DNA of 64,000 nucleotides from an uncultured Candidatus Saccharibacteria bacterium (GTDB lineage: Bacteria; Patescibacteriota; Andersenbacteria; UBA10190). Position 1 is the first letter of the stretch. Each line of letters opens with the position of its first letter. The stretch lies in contig CAYJKV010000006.1 in assembly GCA_964371255.1 (NCBI GenBank), positions 9,806 through 73,805 on the forward strand. The letters are read 5' to 3'. A model generated the notes under the pieces. It saw only the letters and a program-made list of their open reading frames with translations, did no database searches and had not been told where the DNA came from. Below are positions 4,990 through 54,208 of the stretch, one piece after another. Made by a program: the position numbers and the translations under genes.

Positions 4990-5517
4990 TTAACTCAGGA
5001 AATCCACTCCCTGCTTCATCTCATCGTCGTTCTCGTAGGTATCATGGGCCAACGCGACGATGGTGTCGGCGACAATGCCGGAGATGAGCTTGTCGAAATA
5101 TGGCTGAACACCAGAACAGGTAACCACGATTCCGCGCCGTTTGACGCCACCCCAATACGGAGTATCGCCGGGAAAGAGCAGGTGCGGCACCGGGCTGGTA
5201 CGATCGTCATTGCGATCAGTCCACAATTGCAGTGCTTTGCACCGGGCAATGTTGTCATACTCGTGTTCCCACGCGTTCTTATCGCCGACGCTTTGTTCGT
5301 AGATCGCGACGGGCTGCAGCAGATAGTTCGGCCAGTCGGGGTAATTCGCCTCGCGAGCGTCTTCCATTGCTGGCACGAGAACCACGACGTGGCAGTCATG
5401 CCGCTTGACCTTGTGCATCAGCGGTGCCGTCTGAAGTACCGTATGAACGGCAATCTCGACGGCCTGTTGTGCAATCTCTTTTGTCAGGTACTTCGGGGTA
5501 AGCAGTTGTTGCGTCAC
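4990..5517 (-). CDS. Hypothetical protein (175 aa)
   Basis: Intact ORF with terminator; locally higher GC; no motif recognised. Confidence 0.45.
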   Translation of the reverse strand: MTQQLLTPKYLTKEIAQQAVEIAVHTVLQTAPLMHKVKRHDCHVVVLVPAMEDAREANYPDWPNYLLQPVAIYEQSVGDKNAWEHEYDNIARCKALQLWTDRNDDRTSPVPHLLFPGDTPYWGGVKRRGIVVTCSGVQPYFDKLISGIVADTIVALAHDTYENDDEMKQGVDFLS

Positions 5518-19117: not shown

Positions 19118-19156
19118 CTGAAACCAATGTAACGCGTACGCTAAAAAAATAAAGAG

Positions 19157-19535
19157 CTCGCGGGGTCGGACTCGAACCGACAACCTAGTGGTTACATGTA
19201 ACCCATTATTTTCATAATGGCATGGACTATCTCATCACCCTTCCTTAATCAAGAAGGGGCTGGGCGCTTATGTAGGATTATTGTTGGAACTCACCTACTA
19301 GTCTCTACACCGGCCTTCGCCAAAACTTCAAACATGAAGTTTCCCAGCAAAGGATTGGCTCGGGATTGCCCTTCGACTCGTCGTCTGACGACTCGCTCAG
19401 GGTTTCCCCGAATTCACCCAGTTATTCGATCCGCCTCTCGACGGAAAGCTGCTATTTAACCCCCTCAATCCCCCTTATCAGGGAGAAGAAAGACTAATGT
19501 CACAGCCACTTGCTCTGCCATTGAGCTACCCGCGA
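19157..19535 (-). tRNA. tRNA-Asn(GUU) interrupted by an intron in the anticodon loop (exon 1 19502-19535, exon 2 19157-19194)
   Basis: Exons join into a canonical 72-nt tRNA: 7-bp acceptor stem (U1-A72), D arm gctc-aatggca-gagc, anticodon stem agtgg/ccact with loop CU-GUU-AA, variable loop aggtt, T arm gtcgg-ttcgagt-ccgac, discriminator G. Confidence 0.75.
19195..19501 (-). ncRNA. Group I-like self-splicing intron (~307 nt), no ORF
   Basis: 5' exon ends in U, intron ends in G; R-like gtgtagagactagta and S-like gagatagtcc can form P7 (gacta/tagtc); Q-like aatcccgagc; internal hairpin gaaacttcatgtttgaagttt. Confidence 0.65.
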
Positions 19536-39152: not shown

Positions 39153-39444
39153 ATAGAATAACTAATTTTCGAATTACATTAGCGTATACGGATAAATGAG
39201 ATTGTCAATAATCACAATTTTTATCATTTACACTCCGCTATTAGTAACGACTAGATAAGAGACCATACAGAGAGAGATTCTCCTGCAGTAAATCTCCTGA
39301 CGGAAATTTCATCCGGGCCTGGCCTCACAGTGCTCGCCTTGCTCTGATGGGCAAATTCGCCCAATACTCCCGCCCTTCTCATTCCAACGAGAGTGACTTA
39401 ACGTCACTCACTCTCTCCTCCTCACAAAACTTCTTATTTCTGGA

Positions 39445-39586
39445 GGGCCGCTAGAGTTAGGTACCCGTACAGTTCAGTGTGTTGAAGCTTTTACTGAAGG
39501 TCAATTCGAAACACAAACTGAGGCATGTGGGTTGGGGTATTATAGGAAGCAAACGGAACAAATGGGACAGTATAAAAAGAGTTTGT
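39445..39586 (+). repeat. ~140-bp direct repeat copy A (about 88% identical to 44043-44173)
   Basis: 54-nt identical core agttaggtacccgtacagttcagtgtgttgaagcttttactgaaggtcaattcg plus a conserved 3' part aacggaacaaatgggacagtataaaaagag. Confidence 0.9.
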
Positions 39587-39729
39587 TCTGTGTTTCCCTT
39601 ACTTTCTTTCACATTCTATTGCCATGTATAACCTTCACTTAAGCTGCATAAGAACGATGACTTACTTACAGTATGATGATACTGTTAAGCGTGGAGGGCA
39701 CTGGGTATTAATAATTAATTCTCAACTAC

Positions 39730-43325: not shown

Positions 43326-43877
43326 TTATGAATTTTTAAACATTAAATAGATCCCCATGAAAGCTAGGACTGTTTCGGGGTAACTCCATGATTGAAGAGT
43401 GGAAACAGCGCCAAGGAATAGAAAAGCACAAGCGATAAAAAACGATTTCCGCGCCGTCTCAGGGCTAAGCGTTGAAAGAGCAACACCTGTGTCGGCAAAG
43501 GCATTCTTAAATTGGACTTTGAGATTACTCATTTCTTGCTTATGTCCCACTGACTGGTCGGTACTTGTTGGCTGGTTGCTGGGCGCGGCAACCTGGGCGG
43601 AAGAAGAGGATCCCGAACTTGAGTACTCAAAACCTATCCAATGGATGTAGCGCTTAGCCTCTGCTGTTAATTCGAAAGGGCTCTCATTACGGTTCTTCAG
43701 TTTTTGGTATTCCAATAGACCCTTTGCCCGTAAACTAAGAAGGCGATCATAAGTCGATACGTGAGATTTAAGGCCAAGCTGATCCGTGAGTTCCCTCAGC
43801 GTAGGAAACCGATCCAATGTCTGCTCCATAGCTCCTATGACCTGTAAGGTCTCCAGCTGTTTTCCAGTTAGGTCCAT
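43326..43877 (-). CDS. LexA-type winged-HTH DNA-binding domain fused to a C-terminal membrane region
   Basis: N-terminus LTGKQLETLQVIGAMEQTLDRFPTLRELTDQLGLKSHVSTYDRLLSLRAKGLL resembles LexA_DNA_bind; Ser-rich linker; C-terminal 2 TM helices; no LexA peptidase domain. Confidence 0.45.
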   Translation of the reverse strand: MDLTGKQLETLQVIGAMEQTLDRFPTLRELTDQLGLKSHVSTYDRLLSLRAKGLLEYQKLKNRNESPFELTAEAKRYIHWIGFEYSSSGSSSSAQVAAPSNQPTSTDQSVGHKQEMSNLKVQFKNAFADTGVALSTLSPETARKSFFIACAFLFLGAVSTLQSWSYPETVLAFMGIYLMFKNS

Positions 43878-44042
43878 ACCTAAATGATACTCTTCCCTGA
43901 TGGGGACGCAAGGGTATTAAATTAAATCCCTGTGCTTGGACAAAATTGAACCGACAAGAGAATAGAATTCGAACCTTTCAAAACCTAAGTAGGTGGGTCA
44001 TTTAGACCCAAAACTATCGGGCGGGCCACGTGAGTTAGGTAC

Positions 44043-44173
44043 CCGTACAGTTCAGTGTGTTGAAGCTTTTACTGAAGGTCAATTCGGAAGTGAATTTCAG
44101 GCATGTGGGTTGGGTTATTTTGGGTGTAAACGGAACAAATGGGACAGTATAAAAAGAGTCTGTTCTGTGTTTC
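44043..44173 (+). repeat. ~140-bp direct repeat copy B
   Basis: Matches 39445-39586. Confidence 0.9.
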
Positions 44174-44219
44174 ATTTGCATATATGTTTATTTTGTGGTG
44201 ATGTATGTTGTTCCTGCAT

Positions 44220-44615
44220 CTACAGGCTGGCTAACAGTTTCTTCACTCGGGTCTCAATAATATCTCGGATGGTGCGTATTTCTACTAAATCCTTCCCTTC
44301 TGTATTATCAACATCCCAGTCCTCAATCTTTGCTTGAATGATCGGAGAAAAAGCAAGCTTCACCAAACAGCCAAAGGAGATAAGGCGATCGTATTGATCA
44401 GCAGTAGCTGGATCAAATAACTTGGGCTTGTTTGTGGAAACATCGATGCCTTTTTCTTGCATAGCTGCCACGACAATAGGATTCACTGCTGGAGCAGGCA
44501 TCGTCCCGGCACTTTCTGCACCGAAATCTGTTCCAACAGCGAAGGTATTAAAGAAAGCCTCGGCCATTTGAGAGCGGCCGGCGTTTTCAGCACAAACAAA
44601 GATAATCTTTCTCAT
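44220..44615 (-). CDS. arsC: Arsenate reductase, LMW-PTPase (thioredoxin-coupled) type
   Basis: P-loop CAENAGRSQMAE (CX5R) at the N-terminus; 131 aa. Confidence 0.8.
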   Translation of the reverse strand: MRKIIFVCAENAGRSQMAEAFFNTFAVGTDFGAESAGTMPAPAVNPIVVAAMQEKGIDVSTNKPKLFDPATADQYDRLISFGCLVKLAFSPIIQAKIEDWDVDNTEGKDLVEIRTIRDIIETRVKKLLASL

Positions 44616-44661
44616 TGCCTAAAGTATATCGGTAATATGGAAAATTGTGTCGCATAAATCT

Positions 44662-45723
44662 TTATGTGAGCGTGTCCAAGGCTTCATGTGTTTGTTGAGT
44701 TTCAAAGAAAGGTCTTAATCGCAAAGCAACGCTTACTAATAATATCAGCACCGGCACTTCAATTAATGGCCCAATCACAGCCGCAAAGGCCACCCCGGAA
44801 TTAATACCAAACACAGCAACTGCCACGGCAATGCCAAGCTCAAAGTTATTGCCCGCCGCCGTGAACGCTAGTGCCGTACTCTTGGGATAATCCGCGCCTA
44901 CTCTCTTTGATATGAAGAAAGCGGAGAAAAACATGACGATAAAGTAAATTATTAGCGGAATCGCTATGCGCACAACATCAAAGGGTATCGTCACAATAAC
45001 ACTGCCTTTCAGTGAAAACATGACAACGATTGTGAAGAGCAAGGCGATAAGTGTTAAGGGGCTAATCGCCGGCAGAAAGTATTGTTTGTACCAAACTTCT
45101 CCCTTGGACTTTAAGAGGGCATAGCGAGTGGTAATTCCCGCTATAAAAGGAATGCCTAAATAGATAAAGACACTTTTCGCAATTTCAATTATACCCACGT
45201 CCACAATACTGCCCTGCAGACCAAACAGTGCCGGCAAAACAGTCACAAAAATATAAGCATACACGCTGTAAAATAAAACTTGGAACAAGCTGTTAAACGC
45301 AACCAGACCGGCCACATAGTCATTATCCCCGTGCGCTAAATCTGTCCAGACCAGCACCATGGCGATACATCGGGCAATTCCTATCATTATCAGACCCACC
45401 ATATACTCCGGATAATCTCTAAGGAAAAATATGGCCAGGAAAAACATAAGCAACGGTCCGATTATCCAGTTCTGCAAAAGAGAAAGCCCAAGAATCTTTT
45501 TATCCTTGAATACCTTGCCTAGTTCTTCGTAACGAACTTTTGCCAAAGGCGGATACATCATCACGATTAATCCAATGGCTAGCGGGATACTAGTCGTGCC
45601 AACACTATAACGATTAATGACACTCCCAACCTGCGGAAAATAATGGCTTGAAGCTATGCCTGCAGCCATAGCCAAAAAAATCCAAAGCGTTAAGTATCGG
45701 TCTAAGATGGAAAGTTTTTTCAC
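44662..45723 (-). CDS. acr3: Arsenite efflux transporter, ACR3 family
   Basis: 10 TM; N-terminus [19 protein letters not shown] typical of Acr3. Confidence 0.85.
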
Positions 45724-45731
45724 GACAACTG

Positions 45732-46469
45732 TTATTTAAGCGCCGAGAACGTAATGCTAGACGCATATTCCGGCAAGAACGCAGGAATTTCTTTGTGGAT
45801 TTCAACGCTCTGAAAACCGGCCTTTCCTAAGAGGTTAAGATACTCCTGTTTCAAAATGGCACCGCTAACGCATCCGGTTAACAATTCCTTATCATTTTTT
45901 AATTCATCCGGCAAAGGTTTCTTCAAAACAACATCAGAAATCATGAGCCTGCCACCTGCTTTCAACGCCCTATACGCTTCGCGAAAAACCTTTTCTTTGT
46001 CAGGAGCCAAATTAATCACGCAGTTCGAAATAATTACATCTACTGATTCGTTATCAACCGGCAACGCCTCAATGTCTCCCTTCCTAAACTCGACATTTTG
46101 ATAATCATTCTTCACTGCATTCGCCCTGGCTTGCACAAGCATCTCGTCAGTCATGTCAACACCAATCACCCTGCCGGCATCGCCGACTTTGTCAGCCGCC
46201 AGAAAGACGTCAATGCCGGCTCCCGAACCTAAATCCAAAACGACTTCTCCGGCTTTCAATGATGAGATAGCGACCGGATTACCGCAGCCAAGCCCTAGGT
46301 TTGAGCCCTCTGGTACTTGCCGCATCTCATCTTGAGAATATCCCATTTCTCGCGACTGTAGCTGCACAGTCCGATTAGCGTTGCACCCGCAGCTGCCGCA
46401 ACCAGAAGCTCTGGCAATGTTGGCATACGATTCCTCCACGATTTTCTTTACTTCTTTTGGATTATTCAT
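45732..46469 (-). CDS. arsM: Arsenite S-adenosylmethionine methyltransferase
   Basis: SAM motif [13 protein letters not shown]; conserved Cys pairs (GCGSCGC, GLGCGNP, SNCVINL) of ArsM. Confidence 0.8.
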
Positions 46470-46780
46470 ATTTTTATCTTAAGAATTAGGTTGGTAATTT
46501 CTTTACCTTTTGGTGTTAAAGAGTAATAAGACCATTTGCCGTCCCTCCTGTCCGTCACTAACCCGCCGTCCTTAAGGTCTTTCAGGTGATGCGAAATGAG
46601 GCTTTGGGAAAATTTAAGATGCTCCATTAACTGGCAGACACAGTGTTCGCCATTTTTAAGCATAAGGACCAACTGCAGGCGGCTGTTTTCAGACACAAGC
46701 TTTAGCAGTGCCGCAACTTTTTTCACATCTCTATATTCGGTTATATCAACACGGCAGCAATCATATGAACACATGCTCAT
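46466..46780 (-). CDS. arsR: ArsR/SmtB family metalloregulator
   Basis: HTH with metal-site CVC ([11 protein letters not shown]...SHHLKDL). Confidence 0.85.
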
Positions 46781-46842
46781 ATATTAAACCAGCACTAAGT
46801 TATTTACAATTCAGAGCCAGCTAAATAGGATATCGCTAAAAA

Positions 46843-47802
46843 CTATAGAACCGCATTAAACACAAACCCGATAATCATTATCCCCGTAGCTACCAAACCA
46901 AAAAAGGTTAGTAGCAGGGGTAATTTAATAGCCTTTTTCAAGATAAGCGCCTCCGGCAAAGACAGCCCAACCGTTGCCATCATAAAGGCCAAGGCCGTGC
47001 CAAGCGGAACGCCTTTATCAACCAGCGACTGCATAATCGGAAAAACACTGTGAGCGCTGGCATACAACGGCACACCCGCGATGACTGCTAATGGAACTGC
47101 CAGTAGGTTATCGCCCCCAACGTACTTTTCAAAAAATCCTTCAGGAACATATCCATGTATTGCTGCGCCGATACCGATCCCCGCCAATACGTACGGCACA
47201 ACTTTTTTCGTAATGCTCCATGCTTCTTTGGATACGTCTTTGAGTATGGGTAAGGATAACGGCGACCAGCCCACGTTTATAGCCGCCGGCCGTATTTTCG
47301 TCTCCATAATATAGTTTTCAACATAACGCTCCATCTTGAGACGGCTCATAATATAACCGCCCAAGGAGCCAAGCACCATGCCTGCTCCGACGTACATGGC
47401 CGTTATCTTCCAGCCGAATAACCCAATGAAAAGCGCCACCGCCACTTCGTTAATAAGCGGTGACGTAATGAGAAAAGCGAACGTGACGCCGAGCGGTATG
47501 CCCGCGCCCACAAAGCCAATAAACAAAGGAATAGACGAGCAGGAACAAAACGGTGTGACGGCTCCAAAAATTGAGGCTAGCACATACTCCAGCCCGTACC
47601 ATTTCCGCTTAGTCAAAAAATCCCGTAGCTTCTCTACTGGCAGGTAATAACGAAGCAGACTCATAAAGAACGTAATAACCAGCAGCAGCAGCACAATTTT
47701 TATGCTGTCATACACGAAAAAGTTAACGCTTTGCGCCAAGCCGGATCCCGTTTCTAAATTAAGCGCGGTGTAAGTAAGCCAATCCGCAAACTGTTGAATC
47801 AT
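46843..47802 (-). CDS. arsP: Organoarsenical efflux permease ArsP-like (DUF318 permease)
   Basis: TPFCSCSSIP motif (the ArsP TPFcSCS signature); 8 TM. Confidence 0.7.
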   Translation of the reverse strand: MIQQFADWLTYTALNLETGSGLAQSVNFFVYDSIKIVLLLLVITFFMSLLRYYLPVEKLRDFLTKRKWYGLEYVLASIFGAVTPFCSCSSIPLFIGFVGAGIPLGVTFAFLITSPLINEVAVALFIGLFGWKITAMYVGAGMVLGSLGGYIMSRLKMERYVENYIMETKIRPAAINVGWSPLSLPILKDVSKEAWSITKKVVPYVLAGIGIGAAIHGYVPEGFFEKYVGGDNLLAVPLAVIAGVPLYASAHSVFPIMQSLVDKGVPLGTALAFMMATVGLSLPEALILKKAIKLPLLLTFFGLVATGIMIIGFVFNAVL

Positions 47803-47909
47803 AAATTACAGGTTAATGAGAAATAAAATAAAGCAATATGTGCATTGATAAAACTATTTGACCTTATACGGTTTGAACTTTTTGTTAATAGGCGTTTTGA
47901 TAAATATTT

Positions 47910-48308
47910 TTAATAAGCCAAATCGTCTTTTCTTTGCTCCAGCTCTGTTTTGACGTTTTTAAATACGCCGGTTTCTTTCACGATTCTTTGCGCTTTGTCT
48001 CTCGGTGTATCGTCGTCTTCGACAAAACTGATCGCTCCGACCGGGCAGAGATTGGAGCAGGTGATGCAGGCTACCATGCAATTATTCGGATTGACCACTT
48101 TAGACTTTTTATTTTTGTAATCAAACTTATACACGCCTCGGCCGCAACTGGTGGCGCACATGCCGCAACCAATGCATTTTGATTCGTCTATCACGGGATG
48201 CCAGTCTATCTTATCGCGGTCAATGCCGTGAAATTTAGTAAACTTCGGGTCTTTGTTTGATGTTTCCATAGTGTTTTGATTTAAATAATAATTATTATTT
48301 GACTTCAT
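47910..48308 (-). CDS. 2x[4Fe-4S] ferredoxin-domain protein
   Basis: CIGCGMCATSC and CMVACITCSNLCP cluster motifs. Confidence 0.7.
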   Translation of the reverse strand: MKSNNNYYLNQNTMETSNKDPKFTKFHGIDRDKIDWHPVIDESKCIGCGMCATSCGRGVYKFDYKNKKSKVVNPNNCMVACITCSNLCPVGAISFVEDDDTPRDKAQRIVKETGVFKNVKTELEQRKDDLAY

Positions 48309-48828
48309 ATACCTCGAACTTTTTGTTCCGCAGATACCATTCCATTAAATACCCGACGACGATAAACAGGGGCAGGGCGACAAGCGTCCTCGCCAAGGTA
48401 AATTTCAGTCCCAAATATCCTATTTCAATTCCCAGCATCGGAATCTTGAGGGTTGAAAACGCCCCGAGATAAATAAAGATATTTTTCACGCTGGCTCCTT
48501 TCTCGTAAAGAATGTAAGCCACGGGAAATGCGCCATAGAGAGGCCCAGCTTGAAGCGTGGCTAAAACTATTACGGCCAGCATGCCCATGATGCCGGAGTC
48601 CTTGCCAATATATTTTTCTATCTTTTCTTTCGGAAACCAGACATCAAATAAGCCGACAATGATAAACAGAAACGGAATAAAAATGATCATTTCAATAAAC
48701 GATTCGGTAAAACTCCGGTAGATTGTTTTGCCGGGATCAAATCCAAACCAAAAGGAAACGATGCCAAAAACGGCAAAACTCGCGAGCCAAATGTACGGTT
48801 TCATTTTTTGGAATGCTTTCTTGGTCAT
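48295..48828 (-). CDS. Permease half-protein (split two-gene permease, C-terminal module)
   Basis: 5 TM; overlaps its partner by 4 nt (translational coupling). Confidence 0.5.
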   Translation of the reverse strand: MTKKAFQKMKPYIWLASFAVFGIVSFWFGFDPGKTIYRSFTESFIEMIIFIPFLFIIVGLFDVWFPKEKIEKYIGKDSGIMGMLAVIVLATLQAGPLYGAFPVAYILYEKGASVKNIFIYLGAFSTLKIPMLGIEIGYLGLKFTLARTLVALPLFIVVGYLMEWYLRNKKFEVYEVK

Positions 48829-49364
48829 AGAATAATTCCGATTAAAACGCCGATGATAATGGCGGCCGCAAAATTCAAAACATTCCGCAGTATGGCGATC
48901 TTTTTGCCAAAATATTTGGTTTCAAGCGGTAAGGTCACGACTCCGACCATCATCAGCGTTGTCATAAAAACAGCGACTGTGGAATAAGAGGCACCCTGTT
49001 TTACAAGGCTGGCGGCAATCGGATAAGAAATAAATCCGGGGATAAGAGTGATGGAGCCGACAACTGCGGCGATCGCAAATCCGACGACACCCGAACCGGC
49101 TCCCAAGTATTCGGTTATCAGTCGCGGAGGAATAATAAACAGCAATAAGCTGACCAGCATCAGGATATTCAGAAACGGGACGATGATATTTTTAAACATC
49201 CTGAACCCTTTTTTAAAGCCTAGTATTGTCTTATCTTTATCCAACAGGAACGAGACTAAGCTCGTGGAAACTGAGAAGGTGATAAAGATTAAAGCGTTGT
49301 TCATAAAAATATACTTGGGACTAGTTGCAATGCTCGCATTTAAGCTCGATGTTTTTTGATTCAC
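48825..49364 (-). CDS. Permease half-protein (N-terminal module)
   Basis: 5 TM; paired with 48295-48828. Confidence 0.5.
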   Translation of the reverse strand: MNQKTSSLNASIATSPKYIFMNNALIFITFSVSTSLVSFLLDKDKTILGFKKGFRMFKNIIVPFLNILMLVSLLLFIIPPRLITEYLGAGSGVVGFAIAAVVGSITLIPGFISYPIAASLVKQGASYSTVAVFMTTLMMVGVVTLPLETKYFGKKIAILRNVLNFAAAIIIGVLIGIIL

Positions 49365-50208
49365 CCTCGGAGGTCATCTGCAAGGTGGAATGCCTAATGC
49401 GAAATTTTTCTTGCAGTAACTTCTGAACGGCGGAAAGCAATGACCCTCGCTCTCCGGCGTTTAATTCGCCTATTTTCAAATGCGCGCTTAAATATCTATT
49501 GTCCGTTCCAGTCTGCCAGATATGGAGGTCATGGATGCCTTCAACTCCCAACGTCGCCGCCAACGTTTTCTGAACTTCATTGAAATCTATATCAGAAGGC
49601 ACAGAATCAAGCATCATGTTGAGCGACTTAATGACTATCTTATAAATCTCTTTAAGAAGAAAAACGGAGATTAAGATAGACAACGCCGGATCAATCCAAT
49701 TCCAGCCGGTGAAATAAATCGCCACCGCTCCGATAATCACCGCCAAAGAAAAGATGGCATCTTGCAAGGAGTGAAGCCATGCGCTTTTTAAATTTAAGTT
49801 ATTATGGGCATCTTTTTCCAAAAGATACGTAGCGATTCCGTTTCCGATCAGGGCAACGCCAGCAACAACCATCATCTGTACTCCAGCTACCTCCGTCGGA
49901 TGAAACAACCTCTTCACCGCTTCAATGACGATAAAAATCGTGACCGCCAGCAAAATCCCGCCGTTCGTGAAAGCAATAATAACTTCAGCTCGCTTATAGC
50001 CGTAGGTCTTTCGGTCATTGTTAGGCCAAGAAGACATCTTCTCTCCCCACCAGCTTAAAACCATTGACCCGATATCCGTGATGTTATGTAAGGCGTCCGA
50101 GATTAAAGCCATGCTTCGCGAAAGCAGGCCAAAAATAATTTCAAAAATAACTATTCCGATGTTTAGGAAAATTGAAATTGTTAGATTTCTACTGTTGTGC
50201 TTTTCCAT
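49321..50208 (-). CDS. Cation diffusion facilitator (CzcD/ZitB-like) metal efflux protein
   Basis: 6 TM + C-terminal cytoplasmic domain; SDALHNITD motif. Confidence 0.85.
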   Translation of the reverse strand: MEKHNSRNLTISIFLNIGIVIFEIIFGLLSRSMALISDALHNITDIGSMVLSWWGEKMSSWPNNDRKTYGYKRAEVIIAFTNGGILLAVTIFIVIEAVKRLFHPTEVAGVQMMVVAGVALIGNGIATYLLEKDAHNNLNLKSAWLHSLQDAIFSLAVIIGAVAIYFTGWNWIDPALSILISVFLLKEIYKIVIKSLNMMLDSVPSDIDFNEVQKTLAATLGVEGIHDLHIWQTGTDNRYLSAHLKIGELNAGERGSLLSAVQKLLQEKFRIRHSTLQMTSEGESKNIELKCEHCN

Positions 50209-50209
50209 T

Positions 50210-50926
50210 TTAGAGATTTATCAGGTATTGAATGAGATATCGCAGGTAGTAAGCCCCCACTGCCAAAAATGTCACTGCCACTGTATAACGAACAACCTTT
50301 TCAACCTTGCCGACAATGTTGAACACGGCGCTTAAACTCGACACACTATACGCGAGCAGAAGCGACATAACTAGTACTGGTAATGCCGTACCAATAGCAA
50401 ATAGTGGCGCCAGTAGTAATCCGCCGTTAGTCTTAAGCACTAAAGGCACTAAGACACCGAAAAAGAGCACGCCGCTATAAGGACAAAAGGCCAAGGCAAA
50501 TATCATCCCTAGCAATAGCGGACCTAAATACGGCCAAGCCGCCAGTTTTTCTTTCCACCGCTCAATATGATCGCTATGAAGCCGCACTGGCAGTTTAATT
50601 AAGCCCAGCAATACTAATCCGATGAGTATCAACACCGGCCCCAGCACTTTATCGCCCCATCCTACAAAAATACGAGCTACGTTCACTGAAGCAAAACCGG
50701 CATACAGCAAAACCAAAATAAAGGAATACGATAACGCTCGCCCTAATGTGTAAAGCACGCCACTCCAAAGCGTATATTTAGCCGATTGAAGCTTACGCGC
50801 CATAAATGCAACGGCCGTAATATTAGTCGCTAACGGACATGGGCTAATGGAGGTCATTACACCCAACAAAAAAGCGGTTAGAAACGGAATATTGCTCTGC
50901 TCTATGAGCGATGACAGCATCGACAT
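50210..50926 (-). CDS. CcdA/DsbD-type thiol-disulfide transmembrane electron transporter
   Basis: SPCPL redox cysteine motif in TM1; 6-8 TM. Confidence 0.75.
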   Translation of the reverse strand: MSMLSSLIEQSNIPFLTAFLLGVMTSISPCPLATNITAVAFMARKLQSAKYTLWSGVLYTLGRALSYSFILVLLYAGFASVNVARIFVGWGDKVLGPVLILIGLVLLGLIKLPVRLHSDHIERWKEKLAAWPYLGPLLLGMIFALAFCPYSGVLFFGVLVPLVLKTNGGLLLAPLFAIGTALPVLVMSLLLAYSVSSLSAVFNIVGKVEKVVRYTVAVTFLAVGAYYLRYLIQYLINL

Positions 50927-50936
50927 ATATCAACCT

Positions 50937-51467
50937 TTACTCAATGCAACAGTCAATCGCTTTGCGCACCAGGCCACGTAATTTGCCCATGAAGCCCTGC
51001 GGTTCGCTATCATGACGATTCACAGCCTCATCGTCTATCCGCTTCACCTCGCCAATATCAACAGCCTTCATGTTGATGCCCCAGAACAGCGAATAAAGGT
51101 CATACGATTTCTGGAACAAATCCTGCGCCTCTTTTTTATTACCCATTGCTTCCTGTTTGGTTCCTACCTCCATTAAGCGCATAGAAGCCGCCAGTAAATG
51201 TTTTGAGATACACCACACTTCACCTTCGTACTCTTGAATGAGTTGTTTTAATAACGCTTTGCGCATGTCGCGCACTTCCTTAAGCAAGTCGTAGTACTCC
51301 GGCTTGCCCGTTTTCGCACCGGTGAAGAAAAAGTGCTCTTCGATACTGACCAGGTTCATGATAGCAATACTCAAATCCTGGTCGGACGACAAGTCCATCT
51401 TGTCTTTCTTTTTACTCTCCATGACTTTTTCGACAAATTGCTCCACATCGAGTGTTGGTTTTTGCAT
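50937..51467 (-). CDS. Hypothetical soluble protein
   Basis: Intact ORF in the operon; no motif recognised. Confidence 0.4.
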   Translation of the reverse strand: MQKPTLDVEQFVEKVMESKKKDKMDLSSDQDLSIAIMNLVSIEEHFFFTGAKTGKPEYYDLLKEVRDMRKALLKQLIQEYEGEVWCISKHLLAASMRLMEVGTKQEAMGNKKEAQDLFQKSYDLYSLFWGINMKAVDIGEVKRIDDEAVNRHDSEPQGFMGKLRGLVRKAIDCCIE

Positions 51468-51474
51468 AGTGGTT

Positions 51475-52035
51475 TTATGAATTAGTGATGAAATAAAAAA
51501 TGATGCTTAGGATAACGAGTGGCAACGTGGGCATAACCACCTTCTGAAACGGAAAATACGCGTGCCCGTAGTTACGCTGCTTGAGCGCATAATAAAGCGA
51601 GCCGCCAAGCCAAAATGCCACGCTGCCGACAACCACACCAACCAATAGTTTATCAATCCCCCAGAGCGTATTGAATGGATGGCCGATAATGCCGCCCCAA
51701 TACAGCGGCACAAGAGTTAGAAGGTAATAACCAACCGTCACAATTAGCGCATCACCACGGAACCGCCACGTTTTCTTAGCAAGCCAATTCATCGTCCACA
51801 TCGTAAACGAAACTATCAGACCACCTACCCATAAGCCAGATACCGTATCATCAATGCCAAGCCAACGTGATAGTCCTAAACCAGCACCTACCGCCACCGT
51901 ACATACCGGACACACGGCTTGAGCCGCTTGTCCGAAGCCAGCCCATACTATCATTGCTAATACTAACAATAAGAAATTATATATTTTCATAAAGTTTGTC
52001 GTTAAAGAACTTTTTAATATCTTCATCACCGACAT
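51475..52035 (-). CDS. Membrane protein with CPVC motif
   Basis: 5 TM; periplasmic-side CPVC pair; possible thiol-redox or metal-handling role. Confidence 0.4.
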   Translation of the reverse strand: MSVMKILKSSLTTNFMKIYNFLLLVLAMIVWAGFGQAAQAVCPVCTVAVGAGLGLSRWLGIDDTVSGLWVGGLIVSFTMWTMNWLAKKTWRFRGDALIVTVGYYLLTLVPLYWGGIIGHPFNTLWGIDKLLVGVVVGSVAFWLGGSLYYALKQRNYGHAYFPFQKVVMPTLPLVILSIIFYFITNS

Positions 52036-52765
52036 AACAAATATCGTTAGCCCACAAAAATGGCACGCCGACAGCGCCGCCAGGAATATCGCACGCTAAC
52101 GCTTTCTCCTCCAGCAGCGTCGCGTTATCGCGACTATGGTAAACTTCACGTTTTTCAAACGTGACTTTTTCCGCAACTTTATTCTCTTCTAAATACTGGT
52201 CAAGAATGGCGCAATGCGGACACCCATCACCGAAGAATAAAATGATATCTGACGCGATCGGGGTTGTGCTTACTTCCATTGCTGCAGCAGTTGGTAATAA
52301 CAGGGTGAGTTTTTGAGTAAGGTAGCTTTCGAAGGCTGGCTCGTCTGAGAGTAATTGCCACACTTTGGTATCTTGTTCAATATGATCAACCCCCGACGCG
52401 ACAGCGTTTACATAAAGGGAGGAGCCATATGCCATGTATTTTTGGGCAATATTTTTATTTTCCGGTAAATCAACATTTACTTCTTGAAAGGTCATGCGTC
52501 CAGCAGCTAAGTCCTGCGCAAAATTCTTTTGGATCGTTTGTGAGGTAAGCTTGCTCAACATCAAACACGAGGAGCACCGTTGTGTGGCGTGAAAATACAC
52601 CACGTCCACGCGGTCAGAAAGTTGTGCGGACTTGCTCATGTTTTCACCCGCAATGACCGCGGGGGTTACTTCTGGAGACATGCCGCCATCTCTTGTCCCT
52701 GCCCACCATACGAACACCGCCAATATCCCAACTACACCTACAATTGGCAGATATTTATTATTCAT
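51977..52765 (-). CDS. Membrane-anchored thioredoxin-fold protein (CxxC)
   Basis: N-terminal TM; CPHC and RCSSC motifs in thioredoxin-like modules. Confidence 0.55.
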   Translation of the reverse strand: MNNKYLPIVGVVGILAVFVWWAGTRDGGMSPEVTPAVIAGENMSKSAQLSDRVDVVYFHATQRCSSCLMLSKLTSQTIQKNFAQDLAAGRMTFQEVNVDLPENKNIAQKYMAYGSSLYVNAVASGVDHIEQDTKVWQLLSDEPAFESYLTQKLTLLLPTAAAMEVSTTPIASDIILFFGDGCPHCAILDQYLEENKVAEKVTFEKREVYHSRDNATLLEEKALACDIPGGAVGVPFLWANDICYVGDEDIKKFFNDKLYENI

Positions 52766-53007
52766 GCGGATAGGGAACTTAAAATCGTTTTCGCTTCATC
52801 CACACTCGCCACCTTGCCCGCCAATTTAACTTCTTCGTCAATAACTAGCGCCGGAGCAGACATAATACCGTAGCTTACGATGTCGGCGATGTTGGTGACT
52901 TTTTCAAAGATAGCGTCGTCAATGCCAAGCTCTTTAGCCGCCTGCCTGACGTTCTCCTCAAGTCTCTGACAACTGGGACAACCAGTGCCTAATATTTTAA
53001 TGTTCAT
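52762..53007 (-). CDS. Small thioredoxin-family protein (redox-active disulfide protein 2 type)
   Basis: MNIKILGTGCPSCQRL N-terminal CxxC; 81 aa. Confidence 0.65.
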   Translation of the reverse strand: MNIKILGTGCPSCQRLEENVRQAAKELGIDDAIFEKVTNIADIVSYGIMSAPALVIDEEVKLAGKVASVDEAKTILSSLSA

Positions 53008-53317
53008 GGGTTTTAATTATGGAATTAAATAACGCCAAATGTTCGCGCATGGCTTTGTCATGCACGGAATAATAGACGAACGACCCGTCCTTGCGCTCGG
53101 CAACTAAGGATAGTTTCTTCAGTTTAGCCAGATGGTGCGATACCAGGTTTTGTGGTAGTTGCAGTGTCTCAACCATCTCACAAACGCAGTGTTCTTTCTG
53201 GCTCAAAAAACACAAAATGCGCAGTCGATTAACATCAGCAAGCAGTTTTAAAAACTCCCGTAACTTGGTCAGGCGAACGGCCTTTTGGGATTGCGGTTGT
53301 GAGCAGGTGAGAGACAT
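52997..53317 (-). CDS. ArsR/SmtB family transcriptional regulator (second copy)
   Basis: HCVCEMVETL...SHHLAKL HTH. Confidence 0.8.
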   Translation of the reverse strand: MSLTCSQPQSQKAVRLTKLREFLKLLADVNRLRILCFLSQKEHCVCEMVETLQLPQNLVSHHLAKLKKLSLVAERKDGSFVYYSVHDKAMREHLALFNSIIKTHEH

Positions 53318-53562
53318 GAGATATCAACGAGTGTTGATATCTTAGCACGATTACATATTCATAAGCAAATCACGACCGGTACGACCCCCTTATGTTCAAC
53401 TTATGGCCATACCATTTACTGCTAACGGAAGCAGTGCAACAAACGACGAGTCAAAAAATTGAGCCCAATTTCGACACCAGGTTTTTGTTTTGCATAAAAA
53501 TAGAATAAGATTCAAACTACTCAAAATCTATATGGGTGGGTCGATTTGGCCCAAAAAAGTTC

Positions 53563-53579
53563 GGCGGAGAGGGTGGGAT
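53563..53579. repeat. 17-bp duplicate (ggcggagagggtgggat) of the tRNA-Ser 3' end
   Basis: Exact 17-mer also at 53936-53952 inside the tRNA-Ser gene; att-like. Confidence 0.8.
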
Positions 53580-53597
53580 GCTTCGACAGGCTCAGTA

Positions 53598-53897
53598 TTA
53601 TGCCTCACCCTCTTTCAACAACTCACGACTCTTGCTCAATCTTACGATTAAATCATTATCATTTGCAATCAGAGCTTTCTTCTTTGCGACAGACCACCCC
53701 TTCAGCTGTCTTTCTCTTAACTTGGCATCTTTAGAATTTTGAAATTTTTCACTATAAACCAAGACAATATCAGAAAACTTTTTTGTGTAAGGAGAATACT
53801 TTTTCTTATGCTCATTCATTCTGCGTTTTAAGTCGTCTGTAAAACCAACATAAAAAGTTTTCTGATTGCAAAGAAGAATATAAACAAACCACGGCAT
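53598..53897 (-). CDS. GIY-YIG nuclease-domain protein (homing-endonuclease-like, ~100 aa)
   Basis: WFVYILLCNQKTFYVGFTDDLKRRMNEHK (GIY...YIG, R, E); start taken at the internal Met to avoid the tRNA. Confidence 0.7.
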   Translation of the reverse strand: MPWFVYILLCNQKTFYVGFTDDLKRRMNEHKKKYSPYTKKFSDIVLVYSEKFQNSKDAKLRERQLKGWSVAKKKALIANDNDLIVRLSKSRELLKEGEA

Positions 53898-53937
53898 GTA
53901 TATATTATCCGCAAGAGCCCTGAGCTTGTCGAAGGGC

Positions 53938-54024
53938 GGAGAGGGTGGGATTCGAACCCACGGTCCGTGTGAACGGACTCCGGTTTTCAAGACCGGTGCA
54001 CTAGTCCACTATGCGACCTCTCCA
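53938..54024 (-). tRNA. tRNA-Ser(UGA)
   Basis: Minus strand folds into a cloverleaf GGAGAGG...anticodon loop CU-UGA-AA...long variable arm...T arm GTGGG-TTCGAAT-CCCAC-CCTCTCC-G. Confidence 0.85.
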
Positions 54025-54208
54025 ACGTCAGCACTATACACATATTCTATCTCGCTATCAAACACACAAAAAACGGTTAACAGAACTTTCTTACTACATT
54101 AAAATGACCCGTTGCAATACCTCGCCTCTTTTCTGAAAATGTCTTCCTTTTTTATTTACCAATTTCAGTCACGCCGAAAAACCAGTTAGCAACCACGCAC
54201 CTTTCCTC

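Follow-up and report, generated by a model that had tools for sequence, protein, structure and literature searches.

The window considered here, a 64-kb stretch of DNA from an uncultured Candidatus Saccharibacteria bacterium, carries on its minus strand an intact tRNA-Ser(TGA) gene followed by a small open reading frame (ORF) for a GIY-YIG nuclease. The segment 53580-53934, immediately behind the tRNA, is probably a mobile mini-cassette inserted at the tRNA 3′ end, with the ∼100-aa nuclease as its sole gene and with a layout like that of the Ssn nuclease systems. This reading is carried by the anatomy of the locus, its recurrence, the variable sequences of the stems that close its end motif and an empty orthologous site in a relative. 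Systems in which a small GIY-YIG nuclease is accompanied by a flanking hairpin repeat are already known; neither the present motif nor a tRNA target nor a duplication has been described before. Judged from sequence comparisons, the cassette belongs to a family of such elements, directed at tRNA genes, that recurs in Patescibacteria.

Anatomy of the cassette

The original prediction had pointed to an exact 17-mer, GGCGGAGAGGGTGGGAT, shared by the tRNA-Ser 3′ end and a site beyond the nuclease gene. The window does contain two exact copies, at 53563-53579 and 53935-53951, the second of which had been placed one base off (53936-53952). The 53935-53951 copy constitutes the terminal 17 nt of the minus-strand tRNA-Ser(TGA) 3′ end and comprises T-loop nucleotides A59-T60, the 3′ strand of the T-stem (CCCAC), the 3′ strand of the acceptor stem (CCTCTCC), discriminator G73 and CC. 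The hunt for further copies came back empty, with no third one in the 64 kb even at two mismatches (shuffled sequences lead one to expect 0.01), and an internal 12-mer allowed up to one mismatch finds the same two sites only. A chance origin of the pair was rejected on these two grounds.

The inserted unit measures 355 bp (53580-53934). Just inside the direct repeats lies a 15-bp inverted repeat, 53581-53595 against 53920-53934, complementary at 14 of 15 positions. The direct repeat and the nuclease ORF had been recognised correctly in the original prediction; the terminal inverted repeat, which links the locus to the wider family, had been overlooked. The features of the locus are as follows, in minus-strand order.

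54061..54033: promoter-like TTGATA-17-TATAGT upstream of tRNA-Ser, a sequence pattern
53937..54023, minus strand: tRNA-Ser(TGA), the intact target gene (Rfam RF00005, 60.9 bits)
53935..53951, minus strand: direct repeat copy 1, ATCCCACCCTCTCCGCC, corresponding to tRNA nt 59-73 plus CC, within the functional tRNA
53920..53934, minus strand: left terminal inverted repeat, CTTCGACAAGCTCAG, starting one base past copy 1
53933..53921, minus strand: core TTCGACAAGCTCA within the left inverted repeat, an exact core match
53904..53932, minus strand: promoter-like TCGACA-17-GATAAT, with the -35 hexamer inside the core and the -10 ending 6 nt before the ATG
53598..53897, minus strand: GIY-YIG nuclease ORF, 99 aa (MPWFVYILLC...) plus stop (Pfam PF01541, E=6.9e-16)
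53581..53595, minus strand: right terminal inverted repeat, reading CTGAGCCTGTCGAAG on the minus strand
53582-53594, plus strand: right-end core TTCGACAGGCTCA
53563..53579, minus strand: direct repeat copy 2, the displaced copy of the tRNA 3′ end

ARAGORN gives the tRNA a slightly different extent (53934-54024, anticodon tga). A single base (53580) separates the right terminal inverted repeat from copy 2, beyond which the minus strand reads GAAC and then TTTTTT (53558..53553). An intrinsic terminator was looked for after the distal repeat in the window, and none was found. The 99-aa ORF is the sole credible one between the two copies, in agreement with the earlier statement that they flank only a GIY-YIG gene of ∼100 aa. 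Terminal inverted repeats and a flanking direct duplication, i.e. the generic anatomy of a transposon, are present at the window cassette and at at least 19 loci. At least five contigs assembled independently from other samples carry the whole locus with 100% identity, and an assembly artefact was rejected on this base-for-base agreement.

The GIY-YIG protein

The 99-aa product matches PF01541 with 58.8 bits (cut-off 22.6 bits) as one domain covering residues 3-72. Residues Y6, Y16, G18, R26, H30 and E62 are invariant across 39 homologs, and the catalytic residues are intact. The structure predicted by AF2 (pLDDT 86) has elements in the order E-E-H-E-H-H-H, and on this model the fold can be assigned with confidence to the GIY-YIG type. 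A profile of the 39 homologs matches 1zg2 (E=4.2e-12), 1ywl (4.5e-10) and Slx1 (3e-3), and a Foldseek search with the model likewise puts 1zg2 and 1ywl on top and Slx1 entries next. The nearest structures are those of the uncharacterised UPF0213 proteins BH0048/EF2693, followed by the structure-selective nuclease Slx1, while UvrC and I-TevI rank lower among the structure matches, with non-significant E-values. A single domain, a length of ∼100 aa and likeness in both sequence and fold are in keeping with UPF0213/COG2827 (YhbQ-like, Slx1-related). The family comprises 19,820 clusters at 50% identity (E<=1e-3). Neither the PADLOC defence models nor NCBIfam returned anything specific for the window protein.

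Annotation of these genes is inconsistent. On identical DNA, gene callers disagree between a 130-aa ORF that reads out of the tRNA (window 53598-53990) and products of 99 and 73 aa, all on record. The N-terminal extensions of some homolog ORF calls (GSNPT, GSIPV) are translated T-arms.

Recurrence behind other tRNA genes

A profile scan of one genome per species yielded 80 loci, designated by L numbers. The relatives of the window protein come almost all from Patescibacteria. Among the loci of Patescibacteria type, 21 have a same-strand tRNA, reported by ARAGORN, that ends 28-105 nt ahead of the ORF, and in 16 of these 21 an exact 16-21-nt copy of the locus's own tRNA 3′ end is found 13-117 nt past the stop codon. 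The occupied tRNAs are of the Ser, Gln, His, Asn, Glu and Ala isotypes. L027, L096 and L101 add three exact repeats, bringing the number of independent Patescibacteria loci to at least 19. Exact repeats of at least 16 nt occur in 15/29 loci versus 3/812 cross-locus controls. Where ARAGORN finds no tRNA, tRNA-3′-end-like sequence is nonetheless present at the distal junction and mostly at the proximal one too. In L027 and L096, a group-I-intron-like sequence lies just upstream of the tRNA 3′ end, and it is probably because of such introns that ARAGORN misses these tRNAs. A sequence of the same kind adjoins the tRNA 3′ end in L026.

In all isotypes the repeat runs from the T-loop to nt 73-77. 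Its start varies with the type of cassette end, being nt 58-59 in type A (..GGTGAGCCTGTCGAACC) and nt 57 in type B (..CCTGAGCnnnGCCGAAGG). As far as the sequences tell, the repeat boundaries are set by tRNA position and not by tRNA sequence. In L004, L008 and L018, N73-CCA can be read from the distal copy and its flank but not from the proximal copy, which places the junction inside CCA. Since the layout recurs at many isotypes, each time duplicating the tRNA's own sequence, and since a relative has a tRNA-Ser(TGA) without the cassette, the proposal of an insertion-type event at a tRNA 3′ end with a minimal cargo is borne out.

Not all cassettes are in the same state. Distal copies have decayed in L007, L019, L025, L026, L029 and L032, and in-frame stop codons break the ORFs of L014 and L015; the distal copy is thus not generally conserved, and the cassettes differ in age. 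L024 has four copies of a tRNA 3′ end that separate one ORF-bearing cassette from ORF-less segments with end motifs, and the 105-nt exact repeat of L030 consists of the duplication plus a truncated second cassette. Two occupied sites lie on one contig (L006, L018); near-identical cassette copies at two sites were not seen. Taken as a record in sequence, host-specific exact repeats at six isotypes, together with decayed distal copies, pseudogenes and tandem derivatives, point to insertion events of different ages.

Two sets of loci bear on the later history of the cassettes. L099/L102 and L101, from different samples, are identical in cassette, distal repeat and right flank and differ in the left flank. 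In L101, this flank is an intact tRNA-Glu(CTC); in L099 and L102 it is made up of unrelated genes, one of them for a type I restriction subunit, and ends in ..GTTCACCC, a remnant-like tRNA end. This suggests a rearrangement through the cassette or its left junction. Apart from this difference, contigs that encode an identical protein (P0001, P0027, P0040) represent the same loci in other samples only. In three sphingomonads (L038, L056, L062), a core-flanked GIY-YIG homolog occupies the same place between rnc and era, with conserved sequence upstream and downstream, and this copy looks fixed and vertically inherited.

A point of taxonomy emerged from the same scan. L006-L010, L018, L026, L032 and L049 come from metagenome-assembled genomes labelled ‘uncultured Gammaproteobacteria’, and they are typical of Patescibacteria, with the closest nuclease homologs, tRNA-linked cassettes and, in L026, the group-I-intron-like sequence. 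These labels are probably wrong.

Cassette ends and the 13-nt core

Family-wide, the cassette ends contain a 13-nt core, TTCGACA[AG]GCTCA or, more loosely, TTCG[A/G]CA[A/G]GCTCA. An exact core is found within -200/+250 nt of the nuclease ORF in 68/80 loci, from many phyla, and its density is 2.45 per kb near the ORF versus 0.046 per kb farther off. At least three contiguous Watson-Crick pairs close the core in 164/208 occurrences, versus ∼12% in flank-shuffled controls, and the closing stems comprise 19 different 4-bp sequences. Pairing that is kept while the stem sequence changes argues for a hairpin over a duplex binding site. For the left end of the window cassette, folding as single-stranded DNA predicts the core in a loop closed by GCCCT/AGGGC (53937..53917), a stem that uses the last bases of the tRNA. 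An alternative hairpin, GCTCA-loop-TGAGC, is formed in 11/206 occurrences only and was discarded as not general. Near-matches to the core at 5084 and 13442 were also set aside; they are not cassette ends, and the one at 5084 is inside a coding sequence. Rfam has no curated family over the cassette ends.

The promoter-like site ahead of the nuclease gene has its -35 hexamer in the core, and the same geometry is seen in 10/31 relatives versus 8.5% of random positions. That the core doubles as the -35 hexamer of this site is suggestive only.

In some Proteobacteria and Acidobacteria the core forms arrays. L046 and L072 have cores in alternating orientation beside the nuclease gene, with a period of 120 nt (L046 2890-3740, L072 2380-2880), and L042 has an alternating array, likewise beside the nuclease gene, at 17-700 with a spacing of ∼33 nt. 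These arrays resemble REP/BIME arrays. In the window, the core is not dispersed in many copies as the cognate repeats of REP/RAYT systems are.

Two further observations concern the ends. AaHKsRNA41 (Aggregatibacter sRNA 41, Rfam) gives repeated sub-threshold matches to L046 2829-3741 and L054 3281-3414, scoring at most 45 bits where the gathering score is 97, and repeats of this type may be the origin of the RNA family. The left-end core of some cassettes is split by a palindrome or by extra sequence, as in L005 (∼1190-1290, ttcgacaagcctgcctgccggcaggcaggctcaggg) and at the left ends of L017 and L022.

Empty sites and population evidence

In the relative L086, tRNA-Ser(TGA) is directly followed by GAATTG..., without a cassette. 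Orthology of the two sites is based on a PK 72% identical to that of the window, a shared cpn10-cpn60-mamF-PK block, the same region upstream of the tRNA and identity of the last 25 nt of the tRNA. The insertion contrast is one between relatives at this 72% PK identity. The flank of the distal copy in the window, GAA (GAAC), resembles the empty site of L086, where GCC is joined to GAATTG. For this locus, the empty junction would read ..TTCGAATCCCACCCTCTCCGCCGAACTTTTTT.. and the empty tRNA-Ser 3′ region ..GGGTTCGAATCCCACCCTCTCCGCCGAAC..; an end-to-end cassette junction would read ..GTCGAAGC joined to CTTCGAC... The contigs of the close PK relatives (93% and 83% identity) end before the tRNA or are without it. 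Comparison of related tRNA-Ser loci, which the original prediction had named as a check, has thus given an empty ortholog in L086 and no polymorphism among contigs of the same population.

Relation to known systems

The Ssn family (Chenal et al. 2025, Nat Commun, PMC11893778) offers the closest parallel; its members are single-domain GIY-YIG proteins of ∼94 aa (CDD cd10448). Ssn enzymes cleave nothing but single-stranded DNA. The cut is placed 3 nt 5′ of a repeat that forms a hairpin, called NTS in Neisseria and SRM in its generalised form, and inverted copies of this motif lie to either side of the nuclease genes (PMC11893778). The authors point out the likeness to insertion sequences and to REP/RAYT; tRNA, Patescibacteria and duplications are not mentioned (PMC11893778). 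Membership was defined by a top CDD match to cd10448, or by a BLASTP match to N. meningitidis SsnA (CAX49033.1) with E<1e-10 and >=75% coverage, and by a length <150 aa (PMC11893778). The window protein, with 99 aa and one Pfam domain, is within this size limit.

The cassettes and the Ssn systems have in common a single-domain GIY-YIG protein of ∼94-100 aa, inverted oriented motifs on both sides of the gene, arrays in some genomes and an insertion-sequence-like layout. By analogy, a cut a few nt 5′ of the motif would coincide with the cassette junctions. They differ in the motif, which is here a conserved 13-nt loop on a variable 3-4-bp stem, whereas SRM is a 7-8-bp stem with a conserved 5′ flank. 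The SRM search pattern, HGTCWYN(0-2)YYVSBRHN(0-5)WNVSBRGN(0-2)RNCYNB (PMC11893778), has no match in the window and a single one in 17 related loci (L066, at least 118 nt upstream of the ORF and not at the gene flank). They also differ in that the nearest solved structures of the window protein are of UPF0213; the protein may belong to cd10448 or to the neighbouring UPF0213 group.

REP/BIME-RAYT systems (TnpA-REP) and IS200/IS605 likewise have a nuclease gene flanked by inverted hairpin-forming repeats, and the ORF-less copies in the alternating arrays of L046 and L072 have their counterpart in REP/BIME-RAYT. Recognition of a single-stranded hairpin is likely to be the mode of the cassettes too, as in REP/RAYT. 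In contrast, RAYT and IS200/IS605 rely on an HUH/Y1 transposase with a covalent intermediate, and here the nuclease is a hydrolytic GIY-YIG enzyme; moreover, IS200/IS605 produces no target duplication, whereas 16-19 nt are duplicated here. Free-standing GIY-YIG homing genes of phages are another parallel, exemplified by the T4 Seg proteins, with SegB in the tRNA gene cluster of T4. They too are small mobile GIY-YIG genes beside tRNA genes that spread probably via host repair. Seg and I-TevI enzymes are, however, larger, with a separate DNA-binding domain, and have neither terminal inverted repeats nor a target duplication. Integrase islands and prophages at tRNA 3′ ends share with the cassette an intact tRNA and a direct repeat of the tRNA 3′ end that brackets the insert; the cassette differs in being only 355 bp long, without a recombinase, with terminal inverted repeats and with boundaries position-fixed across isotypes. 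Casposons (PMC4046053) have terminal inverted repeats and long target duplications (14-15 bp), and some are at the 3′ ends of tRNA genes, but they are self-synthesising elements of several kb with a Cas1 integrase, and the only protein of the cassette is a 99-aa nuclease.

In the literature, no paper was found that contains the cassette-end 14-mer, and none in which GIY-YIG is connected to tRNA in Patescibacteria or to REP/RAYT. COG2827 proteins appear there as putative repair nucleases only.

Proposed mechanism of insertion

For the mini-cassette, we infer the substrate of the enzyme, the nick positions, the order of events and any present-day activity along the following lines. By analogy with Ssn enzymes, the nuclease would recognise the end motif in single-stranded DNA and nick a few nt 5′ of it on each strand. 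At the left end the top strand would be nicked, and at the right end the bottom strand, each 1-3 nt 5′ of TTCGAC; the positions given by the Ssn rule coincide with the two cassette/repeat junctions. The tRNA T-arm (a stem that carries the loop TTCGAAT) is similar to the end motif, whose stem carries a loop starting with TTCGAC, and may for this reason be a preferred target. Such likeness would explain both the choice of target and the left boundary of the repeat. Two offset nicks would then be made in the target, one in the T-loop and a second, on the opposite strand, near nt 74/75. Since T-loop and 3′ end are always the same distance apart, the position of the second would be alike in all tRNAs. 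Joining and gap filling by the host would produce the 16-19-nt duplication and keep the tRNA intact, with the sequence from T-loop nt 59 to nt 75 present on both sides of the cassette. Once settled behind one isotype, a cassette would probably spread mainly to the same tRNA gene of other cells, by homology-assisted repair. Precise loss by replication slippage is favoured where a direct repeat flanks an inverted one, and the cassette might be lost precisely by slippage or by recombination between the two repeat copies.

On a wider scale, it is tempting to propose, tentatively and with some doubt, that these cassettes represent an unrecognised class of autonomous bacterial DNA transposon. Their sole protein would be a ∼100-aa GIY-YIG single-strand nuclease that reads a hairpin-presented 13-nt end motif, mistakes the tRNA T-arm for it and inserts there, with the geometry of the tRNA setting the limits of the duplication (nt ∼57/59 to 74).

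Weighing the explanations

Several points weigh against a mobile cassette that inserts by itself. To our knowledge, GIY-YIG enzymes hydrolyse DNA and do not perform strand transfer, and we know of none that produces a 16-19-bp duplication. The window protein is no more than a candidate member of the biochemically characterised Ssn clade, and no relatives of it were found among viral contigs (IMG/VR). By energy, the window folds no better than shuffled sequences and the closing stems have just 3-4 bp, so that the hairpin is argued from the comparative statistics of closing stems alone. The core occurs only twice in the window, both times as a cassette end, which gives no sign of spread inside this genome. 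In the same population, neither an empty site nor an excision junction turned up; all 16-plus contigs with this locus are identical, without polymorphism, and a single metagenome scan for the exact empty junction retrieved five unrelated tRNA-Ser genes only. Finally, the nuclease tree tracks end type and, mostly, tRNA isotype. This is compatible with isotype-specific homing and equally with long vertical residence.

Both alternatives deserve consideration. Under classical homing, the main rival for the step of spreading, a tRNA gene of the same kind that has no cassette would be cut by the nuclease at or close to its T-loop and synthesis-dependent strand annealing would copy the cassette, the distal repeat being the right homology arm carried along and not a new product of every insertion. 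Hydrolytic GIY-YIG enzymes are known as homing enzymes, and several features fit, namely nucleases that cluster by tRNA isotype, a left repeat boundary in the T-loop beside TTCGA, which resembles the end motif, and the pair L099/L102 and L101, where the same cassette and right flank with different left flanks are as expected from recombination through the cassette. Yet within each end type the boundaries (nt 57 or 58-59 to ∼74) are alike over five or six isotypes, so that each isotype switch needed a position-defined duplication anyway. The occupied tRNA also keeps an intact T-loop and is not obviously immune to re-cutting, L024 showing re-insertion, and the window protein is without the separate DNA-binding domain of I-TevI-type enzymes. 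Homing is on balance unlikely. A more sedentary explanation, in which a domesticated Ssn-like gene is resident and no longer mobile, would have the end motifs and the distal fragment serve the host or the gene in expression, in forming transcript 3′ ends or in control of recombination or transformation at tRNA loci. Domestication is suggested by the Ssn authors, and NTS/SsnA in Neisseria has been proposed to control recombination/transformation (PMC11893778). The fixed and invariant locus of the sampled population, the promoter-like site that uses the core as its -35 hexamer and the sphingomonad homolog at its fixed rnc-era place are all in line with this idea. It is at odds with the decay of distal copies in several loci and the pseudogenisation of some ORFs, with a layout repeated at six isotypes by host-specific repeats, with the existence of tandem and ORF-less derivatives, and with the empty orthologous site in L086, and it is distinctly improbable.

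The original prediction had ALTERNATIVES, i.e. the ars-island and group I intron readings, neither of which gains support. That the 17-mer pair is the leftover att site of an integrase island in tRNA-Ser, the island being the ars/metal-resistance cluster, has very little probability. tRNA 3′ ends are classic integrase targets, G+C does drop from ∼0.50-0.57 to ∼0.39-0.47 on the cassette/ars side of the tRNA, and synteny does break there, ending exactly at tRNA-Ser (relatives have purC/purE between PK and tRNA-Ser, and other genes beyond the tRNA). The repeats, however, bracket 355 bp and not an island, and this cassette fully explains the pair. No integrase or recombinase domain is present among the called genes of the next ∼10 kb, the 64 kb hold no third repeat copy, and the same layout is found at other tRNAs with the nuclease gene as the only cargo. 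That the nuclease gene has its origin in a group I intron, or is associated with one, and is linked to the intron-bearing tRNA-Asn has next to no probability and is effectively refuted. A group I intron does interrupt tRNA-Asn(GTT) in the same window, as the original prediction had stated, and upstream of the tRNA 3′ end in the occupied loci L027 and L096 the sequence is group-I-intron-like. The tRNA-Asn intron is nevertheless without an ORF and unrelated to the nuclease gene, no cassette lies behind tRNA-Asn, no intron model matches 53400-54150 even at E<=5, and the cassette lies after the mature tRNA end and not within the tRNA. The intron endonuclease model TIGR01453 scores 23.1 bits against a cut-off of 56.05 and covers residues 4-36 only. 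The protein is single-domain and UPF0213/Ssn-like, and the combination that distinguishes an I-TevI-type enzyme (GIY-YIG domain plus linker and DNA-binding domain, with an intron location or a TIGR01453 match) is not found in it.

Other features of the window

The tRNA-Asn and the metal-resistance cluster named above have the following positions.

19203-19468, minus strand: group I intron of 266 nt in the anticodon loop of tRNA-Asn(GTT) (Rfam 71.4 bits; exons ∼19150-19530)
∼43600-53560: lower-G+C metal/arsenic cluster that starts right after the cassette, with two ArsR, a thioredoxin-like protein, DsbD_2, cation efflux, ArsP permeases, ferredoxin, a methyltransferase, Acr3/SBF and a low-molecular-weight (LMW) phosphatase

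The tRNA-Asn(GTT) is not reported by ARAGORN; its 3′ end reads ..CCCGCGAGCT and is followed by a T-run, without a GIY-YIG cassette. Near the far end of the ars cluster and a LexA-like gene, a direct repeat of ∼158 nt with 88% identity is present at 39439-39596 and ∼44017-44173, 4.6 kb apart.

Significance

For twenty years, the small GIY-YIG proteins of COG2827/UPF0213 have been annotated as possible repair nucleases. In 2025, the cd10448 clade (Ssn) was shown to consist of hairpin-guided single-strand DNases, and its insertion-sequence-like layout was noted and left unexplained. The present locus and its relatives fill this gap with a definite target, the tRNA 3′ ends, and with the footprint of a duplication, to which decayed copies, derivatives without an ORF and an empty site are added. 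They also reveal a recurrent feature of Patescibacteria tRNA loci that can mislead gene callers, with ORFs read out of the tRNA and starts that differ between annotations, and they offer a second motif/enzyme pair for single-stranded-DNA tools. If the transposon reading is true, these would be the first insertion footprints for Ssn-like nuclease/hairpin-repeat systems, whose mobility has so far been conjectured.

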